From a virus, in the IMG/VR virus record IMGVR_UViG_3300045988_033265, positions 1 through 42,797 of that record: a DNA stretch of 42,797 nucleotides, one strand, 5' to 3'. The position numbers and the translations under genes are program-made. Below, piece after piece: positions 465 to 42,797 of the stretch. The notes beneath the pieces are model-generated. The model did not search any database. It was not told where the DNA came from and was given only the letters and a program-made list of their open reading frames with translations. Each line of letters opens with the position of its first letter. Positions within the stretch are counted from its first letter, which is position 1.

Positions 465-494
465 CAACTGCATAGCATAGCTTTTTGTTGGCGA

Positions 495-514
495 TTTTGT
501 TGACGTCAACAAAA
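495..514. promoter_or_regulatory. Perfect 20-bp palindrome TTTTGTTGACGTCAACAAAA
   Basis: Read directly. Lies in the intergenic space between the split gene and the next CDS. Confidence 0.5.
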
Positions 515-545
515 TGGTCGGCCCCGTGCCGATACTTACAACAAC

Positions 546-576
546 GCGGCGGGGCAATAGCCCTGCCGCTTATTTT
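546..576 (+). terminator. Rho-independent terminator candidate
   Basis: GCGGCGGGG (546-554) pairs with CCCTGCCGC (561-569), including one G-U pair. Followed by TTATTTT. Confidence 0.6.
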
Positions 577-598
577 AACTGAGAAAGGAATGATTTTA

Positions 599-1021
599 AT
601 GGCAGAATTTACTTCTGCGGCAATTCAGACCGTTGCTGCTGGCCAGAACGTTCCCCTGACCGAAACGGCGGTCAATAGCAAACCCTGTATCGTGCATCGC
701 CAGGGCGCGGGCATTGTCACGCTGCGCGGCCTCACCAATCAAAACCGCGCCCTGTTTAGGGTCTCCTTTGGCGGCAACATCGCTATTCCCACCGGAGGCA
801 CGGTTGAGGCTATCACGGCGGCGCTTGCCATCAACGGAGAGCCGCTGACCAGTGCAACGGCGACCGTCACGCCCGCGGCGGTAGGAAACTACTTTAACAT
901 TTATGTTTCCGCACAGGTCTGCGTTCCGAAAGGCTGCTGCCTGACGGTCGCAATGGAAAATACCAGCACTCAGGCCGTCAACTTCGCTAACTCGAATCTG
1001 ACGGTTGAGAGAATCGCGTGA
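599..1021 (+). CDS. BclA C-terminal-domain-like (C1q/TNF-like jelly-roll) protein, stand-alone
   Basis: SD GAGAAAGGA lies 9 nt before ATG 599. Beta-rich pattern, with C-terminus NLTVERIA resembling BclA ...IIIEKVA (from memory). Strong coding frame. Confidence 0.55.
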   Translation: MAEFTSAAIQTVAAGQNVPLTETAVNSKPCIVHRQGAGIVTLRGLTNQNRALFRVSFGGNIAIPTGGTVEAITAALAINGEPLTSATATVTPAAVGNYFNIYVSAQVCVPKGCCLTVAMENTSTQAVNFANSNLTVERIA

Positions 1022-1403: not shown

Positions 1404-1724
1404 ATGGTCGACGAGAACGAGGTCAATCGCTGGATAGCTCGCCTCGAGACGGAAGAATCAAGCTGGACAAACTATGAGCGCCTTGCCGTGCTGTATGCCA
1501 TCCGTGACCAGCAAAGCGGTAGCAGAGAGAGGGGTTGGCCAATGGCATACTCCGCAGCGCCCGCGCCAGCCAACATCGAAACATACGGCGACAGCGATTT
1601 TCTGCGCGCAGTGGCAGATGTTCCGCCGGACAAGGCATGGGAGATCATGGATGAGCTGATGGACAGCTTGAAAATTGTAAACGAGCGCGTCTATAATAGC
1701 GTCATGCGGAAACTGGAAAAGTAA
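1404..1724 (+). CDS. Hypothetical protein
   Basis: ATG 1404 preceded by AAGGGGG. 106 aa. Last gene before attP. Confidence 0.65.
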   Translation: MVDENEVNRWIARLETEESSWTNYERLAVLYAIRDQQSGSRERGWPMAYSAAPAPANIETYGDSDFLRAVADVPPDKAWEIMDELMDSLKIVNERVYNSVMRKLEK

Positions 1725-1941: not shown

Positions 1942-1976
1942 TTTGCAGATGAATTGCAGATGGAATTACAGATGAA
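1942..1976 (+). repeat. Three tandem copies of the ATTGCAGATGRA-type motif (right arm of attP)
   Basis: TTTGCAGATGA, ATTGCAGATGGA, ATTACAGATGAA. Overlaps the integrase 3' end. Confidence 0.6.
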
Positions 1977-2979
1977 ATTCGGATTCAAAAAAGCCGTCAA
2001 CGGCGTCTGCCACTGCTACGGCTTTATCATCCATGGTGTGCTGATATACGTTTTTTAGCATGTTGTTTGTAGAGTGCCCCATGCGTTCCATTGCGTATTT
2101 ATCGGGGACATTGAGCCTGAGCATGACCGATGCATTTACATGGCGGAGGTCGTGGAAGCGGAACGGCTGAACTCCGCAGCGGTCGCACGCACGTTGCAGA
2201 TGCTTATACAGAACGTTTCTGGTCGCGTGCACAATGTAGTCATCTGTGCGCGGCGTTGCTTCGATCAGCCCCATAATATACGGCGGGACTTTTAGTTTCC
2301 GGTTGCCGCTGTAGGTCTTAGGTTGCTTGAGCTGCGGGCCGTCCTCACCGTCTACCATCGCTTGCTTAATCGTAAGAATATCGCCGTCAATGCAATCCCA
2401 TGTCAGACCTCTGATCTCTGATGTGCGAAGACCGAGCCAAACGGCCAGCAGAAACGGCAATTCAAAATCCGTGCCTTTGCAATCCTCATGCAGGATTCTA
2501 ATTTCTTCCATGGTAGGGATTTTAATTTTAGGCGCTTCCTTCTGCGGCAAAGATACGCGGAACATTTTATCGGGGCACTCCTCCGACATTGCCGCCGTAA
2601 ACAGGCCGTAAGCGTTGCGGACGTACTTCGGGGACTTTTCCCGGGACATCTTATTCACGGCACGCTGCACGCGATCTTGCGTCAACGCAGCGCATTTAAC
2701 GCTCATCAGCTCCGGGAAAACCACTTTGCGGAGTTTTCTGTACCCGTTAACGGTGGAGGGAGATAGTATCGCGTCCTTGCTGTCGATATATCGGTCGATA
2801 GCATCACCAACCGTGCGCTCAGACGCACGAGCAGCAGACTTCGCGCCGGACTTCAATGCGGCGGCTTCATTCTCCGCCTGCCGCTTAGTAAGCGCTGTGA
2901 CGGACACGCGTTTTCCGTCTACCATGACGCTGACATTCCAGTTGCCGGACGGTAGTAGTTTTGCTTTCGGTATCTTCAT
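1966..2979 (-). CDS. int: Tyrosine recombinase / phage integrase
   Basis: Catalytic pattern LRTSEIRGL ... HDLRH ... MGHSTNNMLKNVYQH (R, HxxR, H, Y). SD GGAGGGGG lies before ATG at 2979 (MKIPKAK). Confidence 0.9.
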   Translation of the reverse strand: MKIPKAKLLPSGNWNVSVMVDGKRVSVTALTKRQAENEAAALKSGAKSAARASERTVGDAIDRYIDSKDAILSPSTVNGYRKLRKVVFPELMSVKCAALTQDRVQRAVNKMSREKSPKYVRNAYGLFTAAMSEECPDKMFRVSLPQKEAPKIKIPTMEEIRILHEDCKGTDFELPFLLAVWLGLRTSEIRGLTWDCIDGDILTIKQAMVDGEDGPQLKQPKTYSGNRKLKVPPYIMGLIEATPRTDDYIVHATRNVLYKHLQRACDRCGVQPFRFHDLRHVNASVMLRLNVPDKYAMERMGHSTNNMLKNVYQHTMDDKAVAVADAVDGFFESEFHL

Positions 2980-3395
2980 CAAATCCCCCTCCAAAACCCG
3001 TAATCTATGCAGTGAAAATCAATGTACACGCACCACACAGCAAGCATAGCAATGATGACAAACATTATAGCAATCACAACGTTGCGGATACGCACTCCAC
3101 GCCGCATGATCTCGATGGTGTCAGTCTTTGCGTCAACGTGTCGTTCCAGCTCGTCGTTACGCGCTTGCAAAGTTTCCTCGGTTGGCGTCAAGTGTTCGGA
3201 AATTCCGAACGATTCATCAAGGGATATGCCAAGCACTTTGCAAATCGCAGCGACCGTATAAACTGATGGGGACTTAGATGCGCGGGAGAAAAAATTTTTT
3301 ACTGTTTGCAACGGTAAGCCCGCTTTGTCGGCAATATCTTGATGCGTTAGTCTTAACAAGTCTTTTTGCTCCTGACATCGTTTCTGAATGTTCAC
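2979..3395 (-). CDS. XRE-family HTH protein with a coiled-coil and a C-terminal transmembrane anchor
   Basis: HTH LTHQDIADKAGLPLQTVKNFFS. C-terminal hydrophobic segment VVIAIMFVIIAMLAVWCVYI. Its stop overlaps the int start (TGATG). Confidence 0.75.
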   Translation of the reverse strand: MNIQKRCQEQKDLLRLTHQDIADKAGLPLQTVKNFFSRASKSPSVYTVAAICKVLGISLDESFGISEHLTPTEETLQARNDELERHVDAKTDTIEIMRRGVRIRNVVIAIMFVIIAMLAVWCVYIDFHCIDYGFWRGI

Positions 3396-3862: not shown

Positions 3863-4070
3863 CGCAGTAAACCGGTGCATGGACGCAATCCGCGCATCTG
3901 GGCTTTCTGCCGACAGCGCGGAATATCTTCCGGCCTGTTTAGATCAGGCAATCAAAGCAAGTAATCAGGTCGCCGCACAGAGCACTCCATTTCGAGAAAC
4001 TCATGTGCAGGTAGAAGAAACAAACGGCGGGTATGATGTCACGCCTTGCGAGCTATTATTTGTTCAATAG
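3816..4070 (+). CDS. Hypothetical small protein
   Basis: SD GAAGGAGG lies 8 nt before ATG 3816. Confidence 0.5.
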   Translation: MKELTKAWYIDAKMVDAVNRCMDAIRASGLSADSAEYLPACLDQAIKASNQVAAQSTPFRETHVQVEETNGGYDVTPCELLFVQ

Positions 4071-4482
4071 CTGCCGATGCAATACCCTTCGATATTGTTT
4101 CAATCACCGCCAAAGAAACCGACCCAAATGACCGCAGTATTTTTGACGTCTTTTCCCATTGCGCTTTTTCGGAAATTGTCGCTATAAACTCATGCCCCTT
4201 TGGGGTGACATAGTAGATAGCCGGCAGTTCGTTATGACGGAAATTCTCAACGGGGTCAAAGCGAAAATCTGTTGCCAGATATCCGCTTTCGGAAAGCTGG
4301 ATAATATGATAAATCAGCGAACCCACGTCGTACTTATTCAATGGAGGGGTAAGCCGCATTGAATCTACATAAAGCACATGATATCTTGCTGCGGTATATC
4401 TTCCAATTTCTTCCGTCTTGATGTAGGTATGTTCCTCGCAGAATAGCATCAAATCGCGGACGCAATCAGGGTCAAGTTTCAT
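4039..4482 (-). CDS. DUF2513-like winged-helix protein
   Basis: N-terminus MKLDPDCVRDLMLFCEE resembles the DUF2513 N-terminus (from memory). ATGA overlap with the upstream gene. Confidence 0.55.
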   Translation of the reverse strand: MKLDPDCVRDLMLFCEEHTYIKTEEIGRYTAARYHVLYVDSMRLTPPLNKYDVGSLIYHIIQLSESGYLATDFRFDPVENFRHNELPAIYYVTPKGHEFIATISEKAQWEKTSKILRSFGSVSLAVIETISKGIASAAIEQIIARKA

Positions 4483-4880
4483 TTCTTCCCCCTCTTGCTT
4501 TTCAAAAAATCAATATAGCGGTAAATCTCATCCAATTCCTCCGCAGATGCAGAGCGAATGAACTGAGCAATTTTACCATCTACGCCCTCGCCCTCTGTGG
4601 CGCGGGCTTCTTTTATGCCCGGGTCGTTATCGAGCAGCCCCTTCACCAGATCAATATCGTCCTGCTCCGTCAGGATTTCTTCCGGCGTGGTTTGCAGCAG
4701 GACGCACATACGAGCGGCTTCTTCTGGGGAAGGGAAGTTTTTACCCCGCTTCCATTCAGATACCCACCCACGCTGTTTTTTCATAATAACTTCGGCAAAA
4801 TACGAGTTGCGCCACCCGTTTGCTTTTATGATAATTTCAATTCGTTCAATATCTACTTTTACGGTAGTCCTTTTAGACAC
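4479..4880 (-). CDS. HTH (XRE-like) protein, candidate lysogeny repressor
   Basis: Region WVSEWKRGKNFPSPEEAARMCVLLQTTPEEIL. Belongs to the operon divergent from the Cro-like gene. Confidence 0.6.
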   Translation of the reverse strand: MSKRTTVKVDIERIEIIIKANGWRNSYFAEVIMKKQRGWVSEWKRGKNFPSPEEAARMCVLLQTTPEEILTEQDDIDLVKGLLDNDPGIKEARATEGEGVDGKIAQFIRSASAEELDEIYRYIDFLKSKRGKK

Positions 4881-4887
4881 AGCAAGT

Positions 4888-5487
4888 TTACCCCTTATAT
4901 TCTATTAAATACGTTTTCCCCTGTTTTGTGCGTTTGATACGTCCATCTTTTGCCATAAAATACAAAATTGAAGAAATATCATTTTGAATAATGGGGTCAA
5001 AAAACTTATATAGTTCGGTTTGCAAGATGGGGCTATTTTCCATAAGAGATTCTTTAATTCTATCTTCTAAATTTTCCGTTTCTGAAATATGCAAGGCTTC
5101 TTTTGCGCACAACTCAATCTTGTTCTCTAAAAGGTATTTAAGCTCTTTTTCGTATTTTTCAATATAACAAAAATCGTCACAATGAGAATTATGCAAATGC
5201 TCCCACATATTAGAAAAATAATCTTGGTATTCAGGGCCAAGAGAAATGCACTTAGATTTCAAATCATAAAATGCCGGGATAATTGCTTTTAATATTTCGA
5301 TTTGATCTTCAACGGAATGCGGCTCTTTTAATGCGACGGCAAATCCAATTACAATTTCTTCAAGGGGCTTAATTTCTTTTGAAATAGTTTGGAAATACTC
5401 AACACCATGCAACGGCTCCGGTCTTCCTTCGAAAGAGCCTTTCTTCTTCGCAGGAACCAATTTCAAAACACTTTTTAGACTTTTCAT
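4888..5487 (-). CDS. Hypothetical protein (AT-rich, no recognisable family; possible C-terminal winged helix)
   Basis: Long ORF in a very AT-rich stretch. I prefer ATG at 5487 (MKSLKS); the track ORF extends to 5616 through promoter-like sequence. Confidence 0.55.
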   Translation of the reverse strand: MKSLKSVLKLVPAKKKGSFEGRPEPLHGVEYFQTISKEIKPLEEIVIGFAVALKEPHSVEDQIEILKAIIPAFYDLKSKCISLGPEYQDYFSNMWEHLHNSHCDDFCYIEKYEKELKYLLENKIELCAKEALHISETENLEDRIKESLMENSPILQTELYKFFDPIIQNDISSILYFMAKDGRIKRTKQGKTYLIEYKG

Positions 5488-5701
5488 ACAATGTAACAAA
5501 AAAACTAAATACAATTCGTACAATCCGACGTTGTAAATAAGGTTGACATACAACAACGGATTGTATATAATAGCCTTACAGAACTTAATTAAGGCAACAA
5601 AAAACCAAGCCCCCAACGGATTTTCCGTTTTGCGGACTTATAACCGATATTTTGTTGGCTGACACTTACATAATAGCGGTGTTGGTTGCGTTTGTCAATA
5701 T

Positions 5702-5716
5702 AAAGTTCTGAACTTT
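5702..5716. promoter_or_regulatory. Palindrome AAAGTT-CTG-AACTTT, candidate operator just upstream of the Cro-like gene
   Basis: Read directly. Lies in the 5488-5734 divergent intergenic region. Confidence 0.4.
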
Positions 5717-5734
5717 ATAAGGAGGGGAGAACGC

Positions 5735-5959
5735 TTGGAATTAAAGGCAATCCGAGAGAATGCCGGTTTGCGTCAGGAAGACGTAGCGAAGAAACTCCGC
5801 GTAAGAGTTTCTGCGGTGTCTAACTGGGAACGCGGTGTGAATGGTATCGCAAGCAAGTACATTAAGCCGCTGACCCGCTTATACGGCGTGACCGAAGCGG
5901 AAATTAGAGAAGCATCGAAATCCGCGCAGACCGCAAGGACGGGAAAGGAGGGCACATGA
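5735..5959 (+). CDS. Cro-like XRE-family HTH regulator
   Basis: TTG start with SD AAGGAGGGGA. HTH LRQEDVAKKLRVRVSAVSNWERG. Confidence 0.8.
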   Translation: MELKAIRENAGLRQEDVAKKLRVRVSAVSNWERGVNGIASKYIKPLTRLYGVTEAEIREASKSAQTARTGKEGT

Positions 5960-6159
5960 AGCGAAAACGTCAAGTTGAAATTGTTTTGGATGCGCTTTCT
6001 GCATGCGGGGTTGATATGACCGATGATATCAAGAATGCAGTCTGTAAAGCCTTAAAACAAATTCGGGCTGAGAAATTTGCCGAAAATCAGCAAAGCAAAT
6101 GGCCGGTAATGAGAAAGCGTGCCGACGAGATCAGAGAGGGCAATAAGGTGGGCACATGA
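5956..6159 (+). CDS. Hypothetical protein
   Basis: ATGA overlap with the previous gene. SD AAGGAGG. Confidence 0.6.
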   Translation: MKRKRQVEIVLDALSACGVDMTDDIKNAVCKALKQIRAEKFAENQQSKWPVMRKRADEIREGNKVGT

Positions 6160-35379: not shown

Positions 35380-35585
35380 TGGATAAGGAAAAACTCAAAA
35401 AGCAGATCGATGGTGCTTACAGCATGATTACAGGCGTCTATGTTAAGGGCGCGGACGCCAAGCGCGTGGCAATGGCAATGCAGCACCTTGAAAACGCCTT
35501 TGCTGAGCTGGACAAGCCGGACGAGCCGCCCGCCAAAGAGGGCAAGACGAAGCTCGAGAAGGAAAGCGAGGTAGCCGATGGCTGA
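35379..35585 (+). CDS. Hypothetical small protein
   Basis: TAATG overlap with the previous gene. Confidence 0.5.
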
Positions 35586-37191
35586 TAAAGCAATTTCCGA
35601 CCTTACCCAAGCGGTACAGATTACCAACGAAGATCTTTTCGTGCTTGAGCAGAGCGGCGAGGCAAAAAAGCTGAAAGGCTCGCAAGTCGTGCAGTATGCC
35701 AAGGATTCTGTCGCGGCAGAGGTGCAGGGCGTGAAGGAATACGCTGACACCGCTAAGGCATCGGCTGATGCGGCGGCAAAAGACGCAACCAGAGCGGAGA
35801 CCGCTGCACAGGGCATCGACGATAAGGTCGCTGCGGCTGATGCGTCCGCAAAGGCGGCGGCATCTTCTGCGGCTGCGGCTGCTGCATCTGCGACCGGTGT
35901 TGACGAGAAGGTACAGGCCGCGCAGACTGCGGCAACTAATGCCGCAAAGTCTGAGACGGCGGCAAAGGCCGCACAGACCGCTGCCACCAACGCGCAGAAA
36001 TCGGCGGAGAGTGCGCAGACCGGCGCACAGAACGCTAAAACGGCGGCGGAATCGGCACAGGAAGCCGCTGAAAGCGCAAAGGACGCGGCGGCGGGTAGTT
36101 CGACCGCTGCGGGGCAGAAAGCGACACAGGCCGCTCAGAGCGCCGAGGACGCTGCCTCCGCCAAGTCTGCGGCAGAGACGGCAAAAACCGATGCACAGGC
36201 GGCGCGCGATTCCATCGTCAACATGATCGTCGAGGCGGTGACCCTTGCAAGCGGTTCCGACGCGACGGTAAGCAAGAGCGTTGTTGACAACGTATTTAAG
36301 CTTGTGTTTGGCATTCCGCGCGGCAATCCCGGTGCAGATGCGCCTACTATCACAAGCATCACGATCCGGCAGACAGACTATCACATGATCGTGTCCCTCT
36401 CTGATGGCACAACGTATGATGCAGGCTATTGCCGTGGCGCTGCCGGTGCTGGCTCGGGTGATATGCTTGCCGCAGTGTACGACCCACAGGGCAAACAGTT
36501 GGATATTTACAAATACGTCGATGACGCGTTTTCTAACATTCCCGCCGGCAACGTTAAATTTGCCGATGGCACAACGTTCCAGCAGAAACTTGACAGCGGC
36601 GCGCTTAAAGGAGACCCGGGGAAAGATGGTGCCCCTGGTGAGAAGGGCGATCCCGGCGAGAAGGGCGCGGACGGCGCTCCCGGCAAGGACGGAGCCAAGG
36701 GAGACAAGGGAGACACCGGCGATCAGGGGCCGCAGGGCTTGCAGGGCCCGAAGGGCGACACCGGCCTGCAAGGCCCGATTGGCCCACAGGGGCCGAAGGG
36801 CGACAAAGGCGACACCGGCCCCGCAGGCCCCGTCAACGTCCCCGCCACCACCTCCCTCATCAAGGGCGACGGCTCGGGCGGATTGGCGGCGGCGACGGCA
36901 GACGTGGACTACGCGATGGTGCCTCACACGCGCAAGGTGACGCTGACCGTCTCGGGCTGGAACAGCAGCACCAAGCAGCAGACAGTGACGTGCAGAGGCG
37001 TGCTCTCGGACGCGACAAAGCAGCTGCTGATTCCCACGCCCGTTAACACGGCGGCGGGGAGCCCATACGACGAGGCGGGCATTCAGATGGTTGCACAGGG
37101 TGCGGACAGCGTAACATTCTACGCCGACACCGTGCCGACGGTGATCATTGGGGTCTATGTGACCATTTACCCCATCAACTATCTCGGGTAA
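35578..37191 (+). CDS. Tail fibre with an Ala-rich coiled coil and a collagen-like (G-X-Y)24 segment
   Basis: 24 uninterrupted G-X-Y triplets at 36610-36831. Long AAxxA-rich region at 35750-36210. Confidence 0.8.
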
Positions 37192-38895: not shown

Positions 38896-39094
38896 GAGAC
38901 TGGCAAATCTCATGAGCGTCAAGAGCATCGTGACGCTGGTGCTGACGGGCGTATTTGCGTACATGGCGATCACGGGCAACATTTCGCAGGACTTTATGAC
39001 GATCTATGCAGTTATCATCGCGTTCTACTTCGGCACGCAGAGCCAGAAGGTGCAGGACGCGGTGGGAGGTGACAACAATGTATCACAGCCGTGA
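38879..39094 (+). CDS. Holin candidate (2 TM)
   Basis: 71 aa, two TM segments and a polar tail. Directly before the endolysin. Confidence 0.6.
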   Translation: MELIHKRLANLMSVKSIVTLVLTGVFAYMAITGNISQDFMTIYAVIIAFYFGTQSQKVQDAVGGDNNVSQP

Positions 39095-39686
39095 CATTGC
39101 CGACCTGCGCGCCGACGTGCGGGCAAACTGCGTCATCTTCCTCGACCTCTGCAAGGAGGCGGGGCTTCCGGTGCTTGTGACGGAGACGGTGCGTGATGAC
39201 GAGTATCAGCGCTATCTTGCGCGCATGGGCTACGCGGCCAAAAACGCGACGCGCCCGACGTTCCACTCCGTCAAGGCGGGGCTGGCGTTTGATATCTGCA
39301 AAAACGTCAAGGGGCATGAGTACGACGATCCGTCGTTCTTTGCCCGCTGCGGGCAGATCGGCAAGCAGGTTGGCTTTTCGTGGGGCGGCGATTGGAAGAA
39401 ATTCCCGGACAAGCCCCACTTCCAGTGGGACGATCACGGGAGATACGGAGGCAGTTCTATCTTGGTGGGACACTACCCGCCGGAAATGGAGGAATACATG
39501 ACACCAACCGAATTCAACAAGATGATGGACGCTTACCTTGCGCAGCTCGGCACGAAGCCCGTGGCAACTTGGGCAAAGGCAGACTGGGACAAGGCTGCCT
39601 TTGAAGGCATCACGGACGGCAGCGCGCCGCAGAGACTGATCACGCGGCAAGAAGTCGTGACGATGATCCAGAGAGCGACAAAATAA
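39078..39686 (+). CDS. Endolysin, peptidase M15 (VanY-like) with a C-terminal SLH-like wall-binding segment
   Basis: FHSVKAGLAFD (H..D) and SWGGDWKKFPDKPHFQW motifs. SD GGGAGGTG. Confidence 0.8.
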   Translation: MYHSRDIADLRADVRANCVIFLDLCKEAGLPVLVTETVRDDEYQRYLARMGYAAKNATRPTFHSVKAGLAFDICKNVKGHEYDDPSFFARCGQIGKQVGFSWGGDWKKFPDKPHFQWDDHGRYGGSSILVGHYPPEMEEYMTPTEFNKMMDAYLAQLGTKPVATWAKADWDKAAFEGITDGSAPQRLITRQEVVTMIQRATK

Positions 39687-39763: not shown

Positions 39764-40009
39764 ATGGACGGTCAGCACAAGCGTATCCGGGCGGAGTTAT
39801 CCGCAATGGCTCCACGGCGAGCCGTCGAATATATCTTATCCTTCGAGCTGCCAGCGGACGAGGCGGCGTGCATCATTGAGTGCGACGTGCGGCGCAAGAG
39901 CTACGCGCAAGTGTGCGAGGCACTGCACCTGTCGCCGGAGGCGGTCAACCGCTGCCGCAGGCGGGCATACCAAAAAATAGCAGACGGGCAAAGAGAGCAC
40001 CGAGGTTAA
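39764..40009 (+). CDS. Sigma-70 region-4-like small HTH protein
   Basis: SYAQVCEALHLSPEAVNRCRRRAYQKI. Weak SD, so the start is uncertain. Confidence 0.5.
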   Translation: MDGQHKRIRAELSAMAPRRAVEYILSFELPADEAACIIECDVRRKSYAQVCEALHLSPEAVNRCRRRAYQKIADGQREHRG

Positions 40010-40030
40010 TCGGTGCTCTCTTTTTTGTTT
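39992..40030. terminator. Bidirectional terminator shared by convergent genes
   Basis: AGAGAGCACCG (39992-40002) pairs with CGGTGCTCTCT (40011-40021). Followed by TTTTTGTTTT. Both stop codons lie in the loop. Confidence 0.75.
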
Positions 40031-40515
40031 TCCACTGCCGCAAGCGTCCAGCCCTTATAGGTTGACACGGTGTACGGGGCCCCGTTTTTTCGGCGTAGTT
40101 TGCCCTCCATCGACCGCTTGAGCTGGCGGAAGCCGGCGGCGATCCTCTCGGCATTCTCGTCGGTCGGCTCCACGTCAAAACAATCGGCGGCATGCTCCCT
40201 CGCCCAGTCCAACAGATTGACCGCGACGACAGGATCCCCTTCCGGCGAGCGCAGGTGCCAGATCTTGGCGCTGCGGTTTTGCGGTCCGCGCTGCCCTCCC
40301 GGCAGAGCCATAGCGGCAGCCGTGCCGTGGGCAAGGTTTCCGGTTTTCTTCGCTGCCGCAGCGGCGTTTTGCTTGGCGGCGGCGCTCCAAGTGTTGTGTC
40401 GTCCCTTGTGCTGTCTGCTGCGCCATACGGCGGAGCAAACCGGTGAGCAAGTGCGCTTGTTGTTGGACGGCGGCGTAGAAAAATCCGCGCCGCAGACCAC
40501 ACAGTGCCGGATCAT
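40006..40515 (-). CDS. Zinc-finger protein (CxxC...CxxxC N-terminus), function unknown
   Basis: ATGA overlap with the upstream XRE gene at 40512-40515. The track ORF upstream of M58 is an out-of-frame overlap with that XRE gene. Confidence 0.6.
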   Translation of the reverse strand: MIRHCVVCGADFSTPPSNNKRTCSPVCSAVWRSRQHKGRHNTWSAAAKQNAAAAAKKTGNLAHGTAAAMALPGGQRGPQNRSAKIWHLRSPEGDPVVAVNLLDWAREHAADCFDVEPTDENAERIAAGFRQLKRSMEGKLRRKNGAPYTVSTYKGWTLAAVENKKESTD

Positions 40516-40793
40516 AACAGCTCCCGCACGTCCACGCCCAGCGCGTCGGCAATGGCAAGCAGATTTTTGGCGGTCAGGTTGCCCGCCTCCGCCTCGCCCA
40601 GCTCCACGCGCTGGATCTGGCGGATATTGACGCCGGACTTTTTGGCCAGCTCGGCCTGCGTCATGTTCGCCATGCGGCGCGACCACTCCAGCTTGGTGAT
40701 CGGGCGGTTATGGCAGTCTCTGCCGTAGTTGACCATCGAGCACACGGTGCAGTCCCCGTCCTCGCGCTGACAGTCGTTGTACTTCCTCCGCAT
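40512..40793 (-). CDS. XRE-family HTH protein with a Cys-rich N-terminal extension
   Basis: MTQAELAKKSGVNIRQIQRVELG. N-terminus has C..C..C...C. Confidence 0.75.
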   Translation of the reverse strand: MRRKYNDCQREDGDCTVCSMVNYGRDCHNRPITKLEWSRRMANMTQAELAKKSGVNIRQIQRVELGEAEAGNLTAKNLLAIADALGVDVRELL

Positions 40794-40807
40794 CTTATCT
40801 CCTCCTC

Positions 40808-41134
40808 TTAGCAGATAACCTTAACGACCTCGGCGTCACGGATGATGAGCTCGCCGTCGTCCTCGCCGTACTCGGCCTCGTTGCCGCAGATGATAGCGAC
40901 ATGGTCGCCGTAGTACTGATTAACGCCAAGGCGATCCAGCTTGCAGGTGCAGATGCCGTCCAGCTCAACGCCGGTATCGTCACCGTTGTCCCAGACATGG
41001 GAGAGGTGCTCGATCGTGCCAAGCTCAAAGTCCTGCTCCTGCACGCGCACGCCGACAAACTCGTAATCCCAGCTCAGGTCCATTTCCTCGGCGACCTTCT
41101 TAATGTTTTTGATCATCTCGGCGTTCATCATCAT
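40808..41134 (-). CDS. Strongly acidic small protein
   Basis: SD AGGAGG lies 9 nt before ATG 41134. About 25 D/E against about 8 K/R in 108 aa (hand count). Confidence 0.65.
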   Translation of the reverse strand: MMMNAEMIKNIKKVAEEMDLSWDYEFVGVRVQEQDFELGTIEHLSHVWDNGDDTGVELDGICTCKLDRLGVNQYYGDHVAIICGNEAEYGEDDGELIIRDAEVVKVIC

Positions 41135-41181
41135 TTTTTGTTTCCTCCTGGGGTGCCCCTCTTTTGTTTACATGCTTAGTA

Positions 41182-41199
41182 TACGCTAATATTAGCGTA
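41182..41199. promoter_or_regulatory. Perfect 18-bp palindrome TACGCTAATATTAGCGTA in the divergent promoter region
   Basis: Read directly. Confidence 0.5.
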
Positions 41200-41225
41200 A
41201 TGTCAAGACTTTTTTAAAATATTTT

Positions 41226-41256
41226 TTGACCAAATATTGACCAAACGATGACCATT
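41226..41256 (+). repeat. Three TGACCA boxes at 11-nt spacing
   Basis: TTGACCAAA (41226), TTGACCAAA (41237) and ATGACCATT (41248). Confidence 0.45.
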
Positions 41257-41307
41257 TGTAAGGCGCGATCCACGGTATGATTAAGGCAACAAAAGGAGGT
41301 GCGCAAA

Positions 41308-41430
41308 ATGTACGAACGACTTTTAGCTTGTGGATTTACCGAGCAAATGGCGTTGGACATTTTGACTCTGTTCCCTGATCCTGACGAGCTGCGCACTTAC
41401 GTCTATTTCGCAGAGCTTTTCCATGTATAG
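41308..41430 (+). CDS. 40-aa protein (below the track cutoff)
   Basis: SD AAAGGAGGTG lies 7 nt before the ATG. Overlaps the next gene by 8 nt. Confidence 0.5.
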   Translation: MYERLLACGFTEQMALDILTLFPDPDELRTYVYFAELFHV

Positions 41431-41806
41431 CTACTTTAACCCAAATCCCGCTGGGCGTAATGTGTCCGACTGCACCGTGCGCGCGATCTGCAAGGCGACG
41501 GGGGAGGACTGGGGCGAGGTGTATTTGTCCCTCTGCATACAGGGTTACCTTGACGGCGACTTACCCAATGCAAATGCCTGCTGGGGCGCGTATCTGCGGT
41601 CTTTGGGCTACCGTCGCTATATCATGCCGGATACCTGCCCCGACTGCTACACGGTCGGTAGGTTTGCCGATGAGCACCCGCGCGGGACTTATATCCTCGC
41701 GCTCTCCGGTCATGTGGTCTGCGTGGAGGACGGGACGATTTATGACAGCTGGAACAGCGAGAACGAAATCCCGCTTTATTACTGGGTCAAAGAAACGGAG
41801 GAATGA
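41423..41806 (+). CDS. Hypothetical protein, possible papain-like Cys-His fold
   Basis: NVSDCTVRAI ... LSGHVVCVEDGTIYDSW. The fold assignment is inference only. Confidence 0.6.
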   Translation: MYSYFNPNPAGRNVSDCTVRAICKATGEDWGEVYLSLCIQGYLDGDLPNANACWGAYLRSLGYRRYIMPDTCPDCYTVGRFADEHPRGTYILALSGHVVCVEDGTIYDSWNSENEIPLYYWVKETEE

Positions 41807-41808
41807 AC

Positions 41809-42234
41809 ATGGCATATCCCTATTTCAATCCCTATTATCCGCAGCCGATGCCGGACAACCTCATGCAGATGCGACAGATGCAGCAGCCACAGATGCAGCC
41901 CATGCAGCAGCCAGTGCAACAGAACCCCATCGCACAGGGCGGCGTGCAGTGGGTAAGCGGCGAGCAGGAGGCAAGAGGGTATCTCATCGCGCCCAACTCC
42001 GCTGTTGCTCTGTGGGATTCCAGCGCGCCGACGGTGTACCTCAAGCAGTCCGACGCAAGCGGCAAGCCGACGCTCAAGATTTACGATCTTGTAGAGCGCG
42101 CAGAAACGCCCCGTACAGCGTCGCAGGAAAAGGGCGTGGAATTTGTCACCCGTAAAGAGTTCGACGCGCTGGCGGCGCTTGTGGGCGAGCTGAAAAGCAA
42201 GAAGAAGCGCAAGGAGGACGATGACGATGAATAA
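41809..42234 (+). CDS. Protein with a P/Q/M/Y-rich N-terminus and a Lys/Asp-rich tail
   Basis: SD GGAGG lies 7 nt before ATG 41809; ATG 41803 is an alternative start. Confidence 0.6.
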   Translation: MAYPYFNPYYPQPMPDNLMQMRQMQQPQMQPMQQPVQQNPIAQGGVQWVSGEQEARGYLIAPNSAVALWDSSAPTVYLKQSDASGKPTLKIYDLVERAETPRTASQEKGVEFVTRKEFDALAALVGELKSKKKRKEDDDDE

Positions 42235-42427
42235 TCCCTTTTTCGGTGCGCTCGGCGGCGGGAACGGCTTCATACAGATGATGCAGCAGTTCCAGCAATT
42301 CAAGGCAAATTTTCAGGGCGACCCCAAAGCGGAGGTCGAAAAGCTCTTGCAAAGCGGCAAACTCTCGCAGGCGCAGCTCAACCAGCTACAGCAGATGGCG
42401 AAGCAGTTTCAAAGCCTGATGCAGTAA
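42227..42427 (+). CDS. Small Gln-rich protein
   Basis: SD AGGAGG lies 9 nt before ATG 42227; ATG 42221 is an alternative start. Confidence 0.55.
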   Translation: MNNPFFGALGGGNGFIQMMQQFQQFKANFQGDPKAEVEKLLQSGKLSQAQLNQLQQMAKQFQSLMQ

Positions 42428-42493
42428 TTATCAACACAAATCAACATCGTGGCCACGATTTGATGAATAAAAATTTTCCAAAGGAGTGATACT

Positions 42494-42797
42494 ATGTCTC
42501 TTTCTGACGGCGGCGTTCAGGCCACTATGCCTGTTGCGCCAACCGGCATGATGAACAGCGGCTTTGGCGGCTTCGGCGGCGATGGCGCGTGGTGGATCAT
42601 CATTCTTTTCTTGTTTGTTTTCTGCGGCTGGGGAAACAACGGATGGGGGAACAACGGCAATTCCGGCGGCGTGGTTGACGGCTATGTGCTGACCTCTGAT
42701 TTTGCCAATGTCGAGCGCAAGATCGACAGCGTAAATCAGGGCCTTTGCGACGGATTTTACCAGCAGGCGCAGCTTGTCAACGGCACCAACATGGCGA
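42494..42797 (+). CDS. N-terminal part of the Gly/Gln/Cys-rich membrane protein (continues at nt 40 after the junction)
   Basis: SD AAGGAG lies 7 nt before ATG 42494. GFGGFGGDGAWWIIILFLFVFCGWGNNGWGNNG (Gly-rich plus TM). The frame runs off the window end. Confidence 0.75.
   Translation, partial: MSLSDGGVQATMPVAPTGMMNSGFGGFGGDGAWWIIILFLFVFCGWGNNGWGNNGNSGGVVDGYVLTSDFANVERKIDSVNQGLCDGFYQQAQLVNGTNMA
42759..42797 (+). repeat. Terminal overlap copy 2
   Basis: Exact 39-nt match to 1-39. Confidence 0.95.

Follow-up and report, generated by a model that had tools for sequence, protein, structure and literature searches.

The phage genome analyzed here, IMG/VR virus record IMGVR_UViG_3300045988_033265 (42,797 nucleotides, nt; this whole stretch is referred to below as the window), carries a module of eight plus-strand open reading frames (ORFs), g1-g8, flanked by an M15 endolysin gene on one side and by a tRNA-type phage attachment site (attP) and an integrase gene on the other. 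Comparison with related loci showed that g2-g8 constitute a real, co-inherited unit, i.e., a coherent accessory gene set, and that the spacer between g5 and g6 encodes a conserved structured RNA element. Together, the gene set and the RNA element appear to represent an undescribed system, in which the fold of the g6 protein is known and the catalytic layout of the g2 protein is recognizable. As to function, we tentatively propose that the module encodes a membrane-anchored intracellular assembly serving lytic growth and possibly linked to lysis; we regard this as possible rather than probable.

Organization and conservation of the module

Bases 1-39 of the window are an exact repeat of bases 42759-42797; the contig is thus circular, with a true length of 42,758 nt, and the coordinates of the module, which occupies approx. 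8% of the 42.8-kb genome, wrap round the contig ends. An earlier description of the window made from its letters alone (the sequence-only reading) had placed eight plus-strand genes at 41308-42797, continuing to position 1724 over the contig junction, and the ORFs read across the 39-nt overlap bear this out. The components of the module are as follows:

g1: 41308-41430, plus strand, ORF of 40 amino acids (aa)
g2: 41423-41806, plus strand, 127-aa protein with a predicted papain-like Cys-His-Asp layout (phrog_3754)
g3: 41803/41809-42234, plus strand, 143 or 141 aa depending on the choice of start codon (phrog_21718)
g4: 42221/42227-42427, plus strand, Q/M-rich helical protein of 68 or 66 aa (phrog_22984)
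g5, 5' part: 42494-42797, continuing at base 40, plus strand (phrog_16490)
g5, 3' part: 1-464 (1-39 repeating 42759-42797), plus strand, the whole protein having 242 aa
three-hairpin RNA element: 466-598, plus strand, directly after g5, recognized by structure and covariation
g6: 599-1021, plus strand, 140-aa protein modelled as a TNF/C1q-like jelly roll (phrog_20016)
g7: 1029/1035-1388, plus strand (phrog_28802)
g8: 1404-1724, plus strand, helical protein of 106 aa

A genome scan with g6 yielded 80 loci from Oscillospiraceae, Lachnospiraceae and other gut Clostridia (some of them mis-binned phage contigs), and a set of 88 loci was compared. In tblastn searches over this set, g5 was found in 81 loci, g7 in 67, g3 in 65, g2 in 63, g4 in 58 and g8 in 37, while g1 was present only among close relatives of this phage (6 of the 88 loci). 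The genes, where detected, always follow the same order, down to 30-50% identity, with g2-g8 keeping it in about 60-80 of the 88 loci, and the reading frames within the g2-g3-g4 and g6-g7-g8 blocks overlap or abut. When clustered at 90% identity, the homologues comprise at least 7,938 clusters of g5, at least 4,985 of g6 and at least 7,610 of g2. One identical g5 protein was found in prophages with differing lysins (M15_4 and Amidase_2), integrases and structural genes; since the module is joined to such different partners, it is mobile between phages.

The RNA element between g5 and g6

The spacer separating g5 from g6 has a median length of 134 nt and exceeds 60 nt in 74 of 78 loci. Its RNA element is composed of hairpin P1 (495-514), variable in sequence, a short linker (AUGGUC in the window, AUGKUC across the loci), hairpin P2 (518-532) and hairpin P3 (546-569), a GC-rich, terminator-like stem followed by a U tract, after which comes the ribosome-binding site of g6. 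In an alignment of 32 sequences, 86% of the cells are consistent with pairing, compared with 41-61% when the structure is slid along the alignment; compensatory changes occur in 20 of the 22 pairs, and none of 500 shuffles reached the observed values. A covariance model detected the element once per locus, always right after the g5 stop codon, in more than 40 related loci. It stays behind this stop codon even where an extra gene is inserted before g6, and no copy was found elsewhere in the phages. Rfam gave no match at its gathering scores (best E-value 0.24, far under the gathering score).

Possible functions of the element are attenuation, antitermination or stabilization of the 3' end. Because this terminator-containing RNA splits g5 from g6-g8, the module is probably not one simple operon. 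The single operon described in the sequence-only reading is retained as a gene unit conserved in most of the 88 loci, but probably not as one uninterrupted transcription unit.

The spacer also looks like a recombination junction. In loci L003-L008, g5 is 100% identical to that of the window and g6 69-100% identical, while in MT835513.1 g6 shares 93% identity and g5 43%.

Proteins encoded by the module

No significant match to any of the eight proteins was obtained in Pfam, NCBIfam or PADLOC (the last giving only noise at E>0.01). The proteins g2-g7 match PHROG families, all of unknown function, and g1 and g8 have no significant PHROG match. The earlier view that none of these genes belongs to a standard phage function, and that no described system has this gene set, is thereby upheld: no such system was found in the literature or databases, and a literature search covering prophage-borne exosporium/BclA cargo, Clostridium perfringens phages and the crAss "spike protein" yielded no paper dealing with them. 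The composition reported for g3 (a P/Q/M/Y-rich N-terminus), g4 (66 aa, Q-rich) and g5 (242 aa, a CCCE motif and five Cys within the last 28 residues) also agrees with the sequence.

The g5 protein starts with an acidic tail of approx. 31 aa, followed by a Gly-flanked hydrophobic anchor, AWWIIILFLFVFC, and a Q/N-rich helical body with a near-invariant CCC, an RPxPxPAY motif and a Cys-rich C-terminus (C-terminal peptide LRPCPAPAYITCNPW). The homologues have a median of 11 Cys each, and the hydrophobic core is kept in 50 of 53 of them. The N-terminal flank of the anchor contains 14 K/R against 100 D/E, and the C-terminal flank 35 K/R against 58 D/E, a charge bias which weakly suggests an N-out, C-in topology. 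By inspection, no signal peptide or lipobox was found in the other ORFs of the module. Resemblances of the g5 N-terminus to YjcZ, and of some g5 N-tails to exosporium leaders ("LSAS"), were dropped as likeness of composition only, without a model match.

For g6, an AlphaFold2 (AF2) model built from a diverse alignment (predicted local distance difference test score, pLDDT, 96.9) shows a TNF/C1q-like jelly roll. The best Foldseek matches are the C-terminal domain of F-BclA, ExsFA, BxpB and BclA (E-values 2e-6 to 3e-5, TM-scores approx. 0.7; top entries 9h38, 7r1m, 8d02, 9h3d and 1wck with probability 1.0 and TMq 0.67-0.76), followed by TNF ligands and C1q heads; phage fibre and spike knobs are also among the fold matches. 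The model and these matches support the proposal of a stand-alone protein resembling the C-terminal domain of BclA or TNF. The likeness is one of fold: no match to Pfam BclA_C at E<=1 and no PDB sequence match were found. The g6 family, with at least 4,985 clusters at 90% identity, has 579 at 50%; the best 150 of these 579 representative homologues are all 72-196 aa long, and none of the 150 carries a collagen stalk, an exosporium leader or another fusion. A VPxGCC motif is conserved, and identity is 82-94% over more than 100 clusters. An origin of g6 as a duplicate of the fibre tips of this phage was considered and rejected, as no homology to its fibre genes was found.

The Cys-His fold suggested for g2 gains support from conservation and modelling. 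Its invariant residues are D16, C17, R20, H97, D108, W110 and S112, of which C17, H97 and D108 are invariant in 57 sequences. In the AF2 model (pLDDT 94), C17 lies at the N-terminus of a helix, and H97 and D108 on adjacent, successive strands. The modelled protein fits a minimal papain-like Cys-His-Asp protein, with residues and secondary structure in the papain order. Foldseek returned weak matches to Josephin, BpJOS, the leader protease (Lpro) of foot-and-mouth disease virus (FMDV) and Tae4, with E-values of about 0.1 (best 0.11-0.12) and TM-scores of 0.44-0.51, i.e., below significance. Alignment profiles of g2, g3 and g5 gave no match to PDB sequences.

The remaining proteins, g3, g4, g7 and g8, are of low complexity or helical, with conserved cores, and no relative of known structure or function was found for any of them. 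Behind its P/Q/M/Y-rich N-terminus (MAYPYFNPYYPQPMPDNLMQMRQMQQPQMQPMQQ), g3 has a small conserved beta-rich core (consensus WVQGExGAKxYLVAP...YxKSADASGxP), then a helix and an acidic tail; it has no Pfam or PDB relative, and a Pfam scan of 46 homologues gave only weak matches to DUF4912. A GerQ-like identity of g3 was likewise considered and abandoned, the similarity being one of composition, with no model match. The reading frame of g4, which encodes a Q/M-rich helical protein, overlaps that of g3. In g7, two conserved helical ends enclose a low-complexity linker rich in R, G, Y, S and D, and g8 has the conserved motif GDSDFL...MDELM...VYxSVMRK. Judged by eye, a single protein of the C. perfringens phage CPD1 joins g7-like and g8-like halves.

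Genomic context of the module in other phages

All occurrences of the module are in phage or prophage contexts; none was found outside phages. The sequence-only reading had raised the question of co-occurrence elsewhere: the genes do co-occur widely, in thousands of gut phages with lytic ones among them, but only in phages and prophages and partly in a structural context. In the other loci, tyrosine integrases, serine recombinases or host genes often lie just downstream, and lysins or holins are among the upstream neighbours. Lysis genes adjoin the module, or its g5 homologue, in the window, Dulem virus 33, CPD1, Butyrivibrio virus Ceridwen and the crAss-like phage cr116_1. In one set of Lachnospiraceae prophages (e.g., locus L045), the module is located between an SPP1-gp7-like minor head protein gene and a scaffold gene, and in L045 genes for Ant-like, PAPS-reductase-like and Lar-like proteins are interspersed with those of the module.

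In Ceridwen, all of g2-g8 are present behind the lysin gene, and there is no integrase; the host genus, Butyrivibrio, is non-sporulating. Growth of this phage has been observed as lytic only (PMC7372960). C. perfringens phages such as CPD1 carry g3, g4, g5 and a g8-like gene between holin and replication genes. The phage vB_CpeS-17DYC has g5, and phiCP13O, with which it shares 94% identity over 70% of the genome (PMC10353432), is not among the g5 matches; the module is therefore considered dispensable for making virions.

The g5 protein has the widest distribution. Its homologue in cr116_1 (hidden Markov model E-value 4e-34) is encoded after holin and L,D-carboxypeptidase genes and before scaffold and capsid genes; further homologues occur in the lytic Bacteroides phage C3_41T2LP, in other Bacteroides phages and in viruses assigned to Methanomassiliicoccales (host as recorded). 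Depositors labelled the crAss-like homologues "spike protein/glycoprotein" or "outer capsid protein/viral fiber". A different small protein is encoded 3' of g5 in the crAss-like and Bacteroides phages; in cr116_1 this protein is beta-rich and contains Cys. The proteins following g5 in cr116_1 and CPD1 were tried as g6 homologues and rejected, since hhalign found no relation.

These distributions contradict two roles that had been assigned to the module in general. A moron or lysogenic-conversion role does not agree with the full module in the integrase-less, lytic Ceridwen or with the head-gene context in Lachnospiraceae prophages, nor does a spore-surface role with the non-sporulating host of Ceridwen or with g5 in crAss-like, Bacteroides and predicted archaeal viruses. 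The module is thus probably not a spore-coat or lysogen-only cargo. Since temperate as well as lytic phages share it, and their hosts include monoderms, diderms and perhaps archaea, its function is expected to serve the phage cycle itself.

Several loci showed further features near the module. A DUF7841 protein recurs just 3' of it in C3_41T2LP (L092, 8357-8755) and in two Firmicutes loci (Clostridia prophages). In L007 (12115-20729), the same tRNA-type attachment (att) core follows g8, and inverted phage-like genes (RVT_1, DUF6273) lie beyond it, which suggests tandem prophages or a diversity-generating retroelement (DGR) region at the same site. In Lachnospira intestinalis CLA-AA-H89B (L039, 5427-6000), the module end of the prophage abuts a sigG/sigF-like sigma gene beside ylmC. 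This gene is truncated about the PMIIGEIKRYLRD region, with stop codons upstream, and its other half was not located; the prophage appears to interrupt a sporulation-type sigma gene.

Surroundings of the module in the window

The following features surround the module:

attP region: 1712-1987, with a tRNA 3' end (approx. 1780-1823) between AATTGCAGATGR arm-type repeats and a terminator hairpin (1824-1858)
tyrosine integrase gene: 1966-2994, minus strand, with a helix-turn-helix (HTH) repressor gene also downstream
Peptidase_M15_4 endolysin gene: 39078-39686, plus strand, at the end of the late region
sigma-70 region-4-only ORF: 39764-40009, 81 aa (Sigma70_r4_2, 30 bits against a cut-off of 25.7)
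strong terminator: 39990-40023, ending the sigma-70 region-4 ORF
minus-strand block: 40006-41262 (1.1 kb at 40006-41134 without the promoter region), between the lysis genes and the module

The module had been placed after the lysis genes and before attP. Its att-proximal position stands, while the terminator and the minus-strand block break its contiguity with the lysis genes. The block contains three ORFs (a treble-clef-like protein of 226 aa, an XRE HTH protein of 93 aa and a protein of 108 aa), and its strong promoter at 41206-41178, the near-consensus TTGACA-17-TATACT, diverges from the module. Three TGACCA repeats 11 nt apart (41227-41254), located in the divergent spacer facing the module, look like an operator. 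Inspection by eye of the region upstream of the module for mother-cell sigma promoters gave none that was defensible, and no claim is made for them.

Also upstream of the module lie tail-fibre genes encoding a Peptidase_S74 protein, a collagen-repeat protein and a CBM_5_12 protein. The tail-region protein with collagen triple-helix repeats (35578-37191, 537 aa) has no homology to g6; it is noteworthy because ExsF-type proteins dock collagen-like proteins. The sigma-70 region-4 ORF directly 3' of the endolysin gene has no counterpart in the closest relatives, L003, L006 and L008. The phage also encodes a tRNA-Trp (CCA) at 19286-19362. A low-GC stretch at 4001-6000 (0.42 vs. approx. 0.55 elsewhere), with minus-strand ORFs including a DUF2513 protein (4039-4482), is probably a recently acquired accessory region beside the lysogeny genes.

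Proposed function and alternative explanations

In the model that we tentatively favour, g2-g8 would be a self-contained, horizontally mobile accessory module, whose products come together as an assembly on the cytoplasmic membrane of the host while the phage itself grows lytically. The g5 protein would be its abundant scaffold, with an acidic N-tail, a single anchor and a long Q/N-rich helical, Cys-clustered domain that is probably cytoplasmic. Partial termination or 3'-end stabilization at the RNA element would keep g5 in excess over g6-g8. The g6 protein, presumed to be trimeric, would be an adaptor docking on g5 or another partner, in the way ExsF/BxpB docks Pro-rich leaders, and the RPxPxPAY tail of g5 is a candidate ligand. 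A papain-like g2 enzyme would process or cross-link a component, and g3 and g4 (Q/M/P-rich) as well as g7 and g8 (helical, with the RGYS-rich linker) may be assembly or chaperone subunits. Such an assembly would most likely have its role late in infection at the envelope, where it would time or complete lysis and phage release, membrane exclusion being the next possibility. A late envelope or lysis role is proposed because, in unrelated lineages, the module is repeatedly found immediately behind holin and endolysin genes, and because its neighbourhood consists of late genes in crAss-like (cr116_1) and Lachnospiraceae (L045) phages.

Several observations weigh against this proposal. Adjacency to lysis genes is inconstant: in L045 the module lies between head genes, in C3_41T2LP after replication genes and in vir215 after tail and DGR genes, and in the window a terminator and an opposite-strand block part it from the lysis genes. 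A promoter and terminator scan of the window revealed no sigma-70-like promoter for the module, none being present before g1. A spanin-like step is not needed in Clostridia, which are monoderm, and holins are already encoded by these phages. The alleles of g5 and g6 reassort freely, which is unexpected for tightly interacting partners, and the partner 3' of g5 in the crAss-like phage and in CPD1 is not detectably related to g6. Finally, the topology predicted for g5 is based on a weak charge bias.

The module could alternatively encode an accessory part of the virion, an explanation that we find doubtful. Here g5 would form a trimeric coiled-coil stalk and g6 its knob in a dispensable fibre or decoration, or the proteins would be packaged in the capsid as ejected cargo, and g2 would be the peptidase that processes them. 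The target, e.g., gut glycans, would not depend on the host. The fold matches of g6 point in this direction, as the best of them are fibre tips (F-BclA, BclA) and phage fibre and spike knobs are among the others, and so do the depositors' spike and outer capsid/fiber labels for crAss-like g5 homologues and the location of the module among head genes in L045 and ahead of scaffold and capsid genes in cr116_1. The high conservation of g6 across clusters would be expected if its target is conserved, less so if it is a host receptor, and occurrence is confined to phages from gut and rumen, whose hosts belong to several phyla. However, the base of a fibre would not usually have a strongly hydrophobic anchor flanked by Gly, the genome position varies, and no homology of g6 to the phage's own fibre genes was found. 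The window has the terminator of the late operon ahead of the module and a regulator diverging from it, and the comparison of vB_CpeS-17DYC with phiCP13O, the latter not among the g5 matches, argues that it is dispensable for virions.

Superinfection exclusion, or another conflict function (defence or anti-defence), in which the anchored complex blocks DNA entry or replication of competitors, is unlikely. It would benefit temperate and lytic phages alike, and the membrane anchor of g5, the mobility between phage backbones and the moron-like spots at prophage ends beside att, integrase or host genes are all in line with it, as are the Ant, Lar and PAPS-reductase-like accessory genes interleaved with the module in L045 and the divergent XRE regulator with operator-like repeats in the window. 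Known exclusion proteins are, however, single small genes, whereas here there are 7-8 genes of structural-protein composition; conflict systems usually diversify fast, while g6 and g2 are very conserved, and PADLOC gave no match.

The function originally suggested, a lysogenic-conversion cargo remodelling the spore or cell surface, now seems very unlikely. Such an exosporium-like set would comprise an ExsF/BclA-like g6, a Cys-rich, cross-linked g5, GerQ-like Q-rich proteins and a YabG/Tgl-like g2. The fold of g6 is indeed closest to exosporium proteins (PMC12357932), and compositions rich in Cys, in Q and in Gly-Tyr suit such a set. The module of this phage lies near att, most hosts are Clostridia, and one Lachnospira prophage with the module appears to interrupt the sigG/sigF-like gene. 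Against this stand the full module in the lytic, integrase-less Ceridwen on Butyrivibrio, g5 in phages of Bacteroides and of predicted archaeal hosts, and the head-gene context in Lachnospiraceae prophages. Moreover, none of the proteins belongs by sequence to the BclA_C, GerQ, YjcZ or exosporium-leader families, and no collagen stalk is fused to g6 among its best 150 of 579 homologues.

That the genes form no system and are unrelated small phage genes, neighbours by chance, is extremely improbable. In its favour, no gene has a known function, g1 is lineage-specific and the g5 and g6 alleles reassort, but gene order is held to 30-50% identity across host families, frames overlap and a conserved RNA element is embedded in the module.

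A broader and more speculative idea, itself quite unlikely, is that tailed phages of Clostridia, Bacteroidales and possibly methanogens share an undescribed two-part membrane machine. It would consist of a spike-like g5 stalk, with its Gly-rich hydrophobic peptide, long helical body and CCC motif, and a small beta-rich head (TNF-like in Clostridia phages), built with a peptidase and low-complexity helpers, with the ratio of the parts set by a new class of terminator-coupled RNA element. If true, the phage life cycle would gain a new functional module, e.g., for membrane remodelling or fusion at exit or entry.

Whatever its function, the module, with thousands of clusters at 90% identity, ranks among the gene blocks of unknown function that recur most often in the gut phages of humans and animals, and its core protein, g5, crosses host phyla. 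Knowledge of its role would allow much of the dark matter of the gut virome to be annotated and could bring to light a new step in phage-host membrane biology. The module also yields (i) a stand-alone TNF/C1q-like phage protein, (ii) a very small predicted papain-like enzyme and (iii) an apparently undescribed cis-acting RNA motif. Culturable systems carrying module genes are Ceridwen on Butyrivibrio fibrisolvens, C. perfringens phages and the Bacteroides phage C3_41T2LP.

Comparison with known systems

Phage morons and lysogenic-conversion cassettes resemble the module in being att-proximal (as it is in this phage), mobile between backbones and neighboured by Ant and Lar genes. The module, however, also occurs in an integrase-less lytic phage and inside late-gene clusters and, with seven to eight co-evolving genes, is far larger than a typical moron.

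With spanins and T4-type holin T, g5 shares a single N-proximal anchor, a long helical domain, conserved Cys and, in several though not all lineages, a gene position just 3' of holin and endolysin genes. It differs from spanins in being Q/N-rich rather than a charged coiled coil, in having neither a lipoprotein partner nor a lipobox, and in showing no sequence similarity to them. Furthermore, most hosts of the module are monoderm (those of this phage group being Clostridia), the topology of g5 is weakly predicted to be C-in, and canonical holins are already there.

Class I fusion and spike proteins (gp41, HA2, and retroviral TM with its CX6CC motif plus SU head) have a similar layout, and a layout only: a Gly-rich hydrophobic peptide, helices and clustered Cys, as in g5, and a separate beta head with adjacent Cys, as in g6. 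Tailed phages, in contrast, have no envelope, and g5 lacks a second, C-terminal transmembrane segment.

The papain-like minimal cysteine peptidases (Josephin, FMDV Lpro and Tae4-type amidases) have, like the g2 model, a Cys at the N-terminus of a helix and His and Asp on later strands, whereas g2, with its 127 aa, is smaller than the known members and its fold matches are sub-significant.

The g6 protein is comparable to ExsFA/BxpB and the C-terminal domains of BclA and F-BclA from the Bacillus exosporium and F-ENA fibres, which have the same TNF/C1q-type jelly roll. In form it is nearest to ExsF, both being stand-alone domains of approx. 140-170 aa. ExsF is a stand-alone trimer, binding the Pro-rich N-terminal leaders of collagen-like proteins in grooves between its subunits (PMC12357932), and a conserved Pro-rich motif is likewise present at the end of g5. 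In contrast to this Bacillus system, g6 (only 10-14% identical to these proteins) has no collagen stalk and no ExsY or CotY partners, and it is encoded by phages, including lytic phages and phages of non-sporulating hosts.

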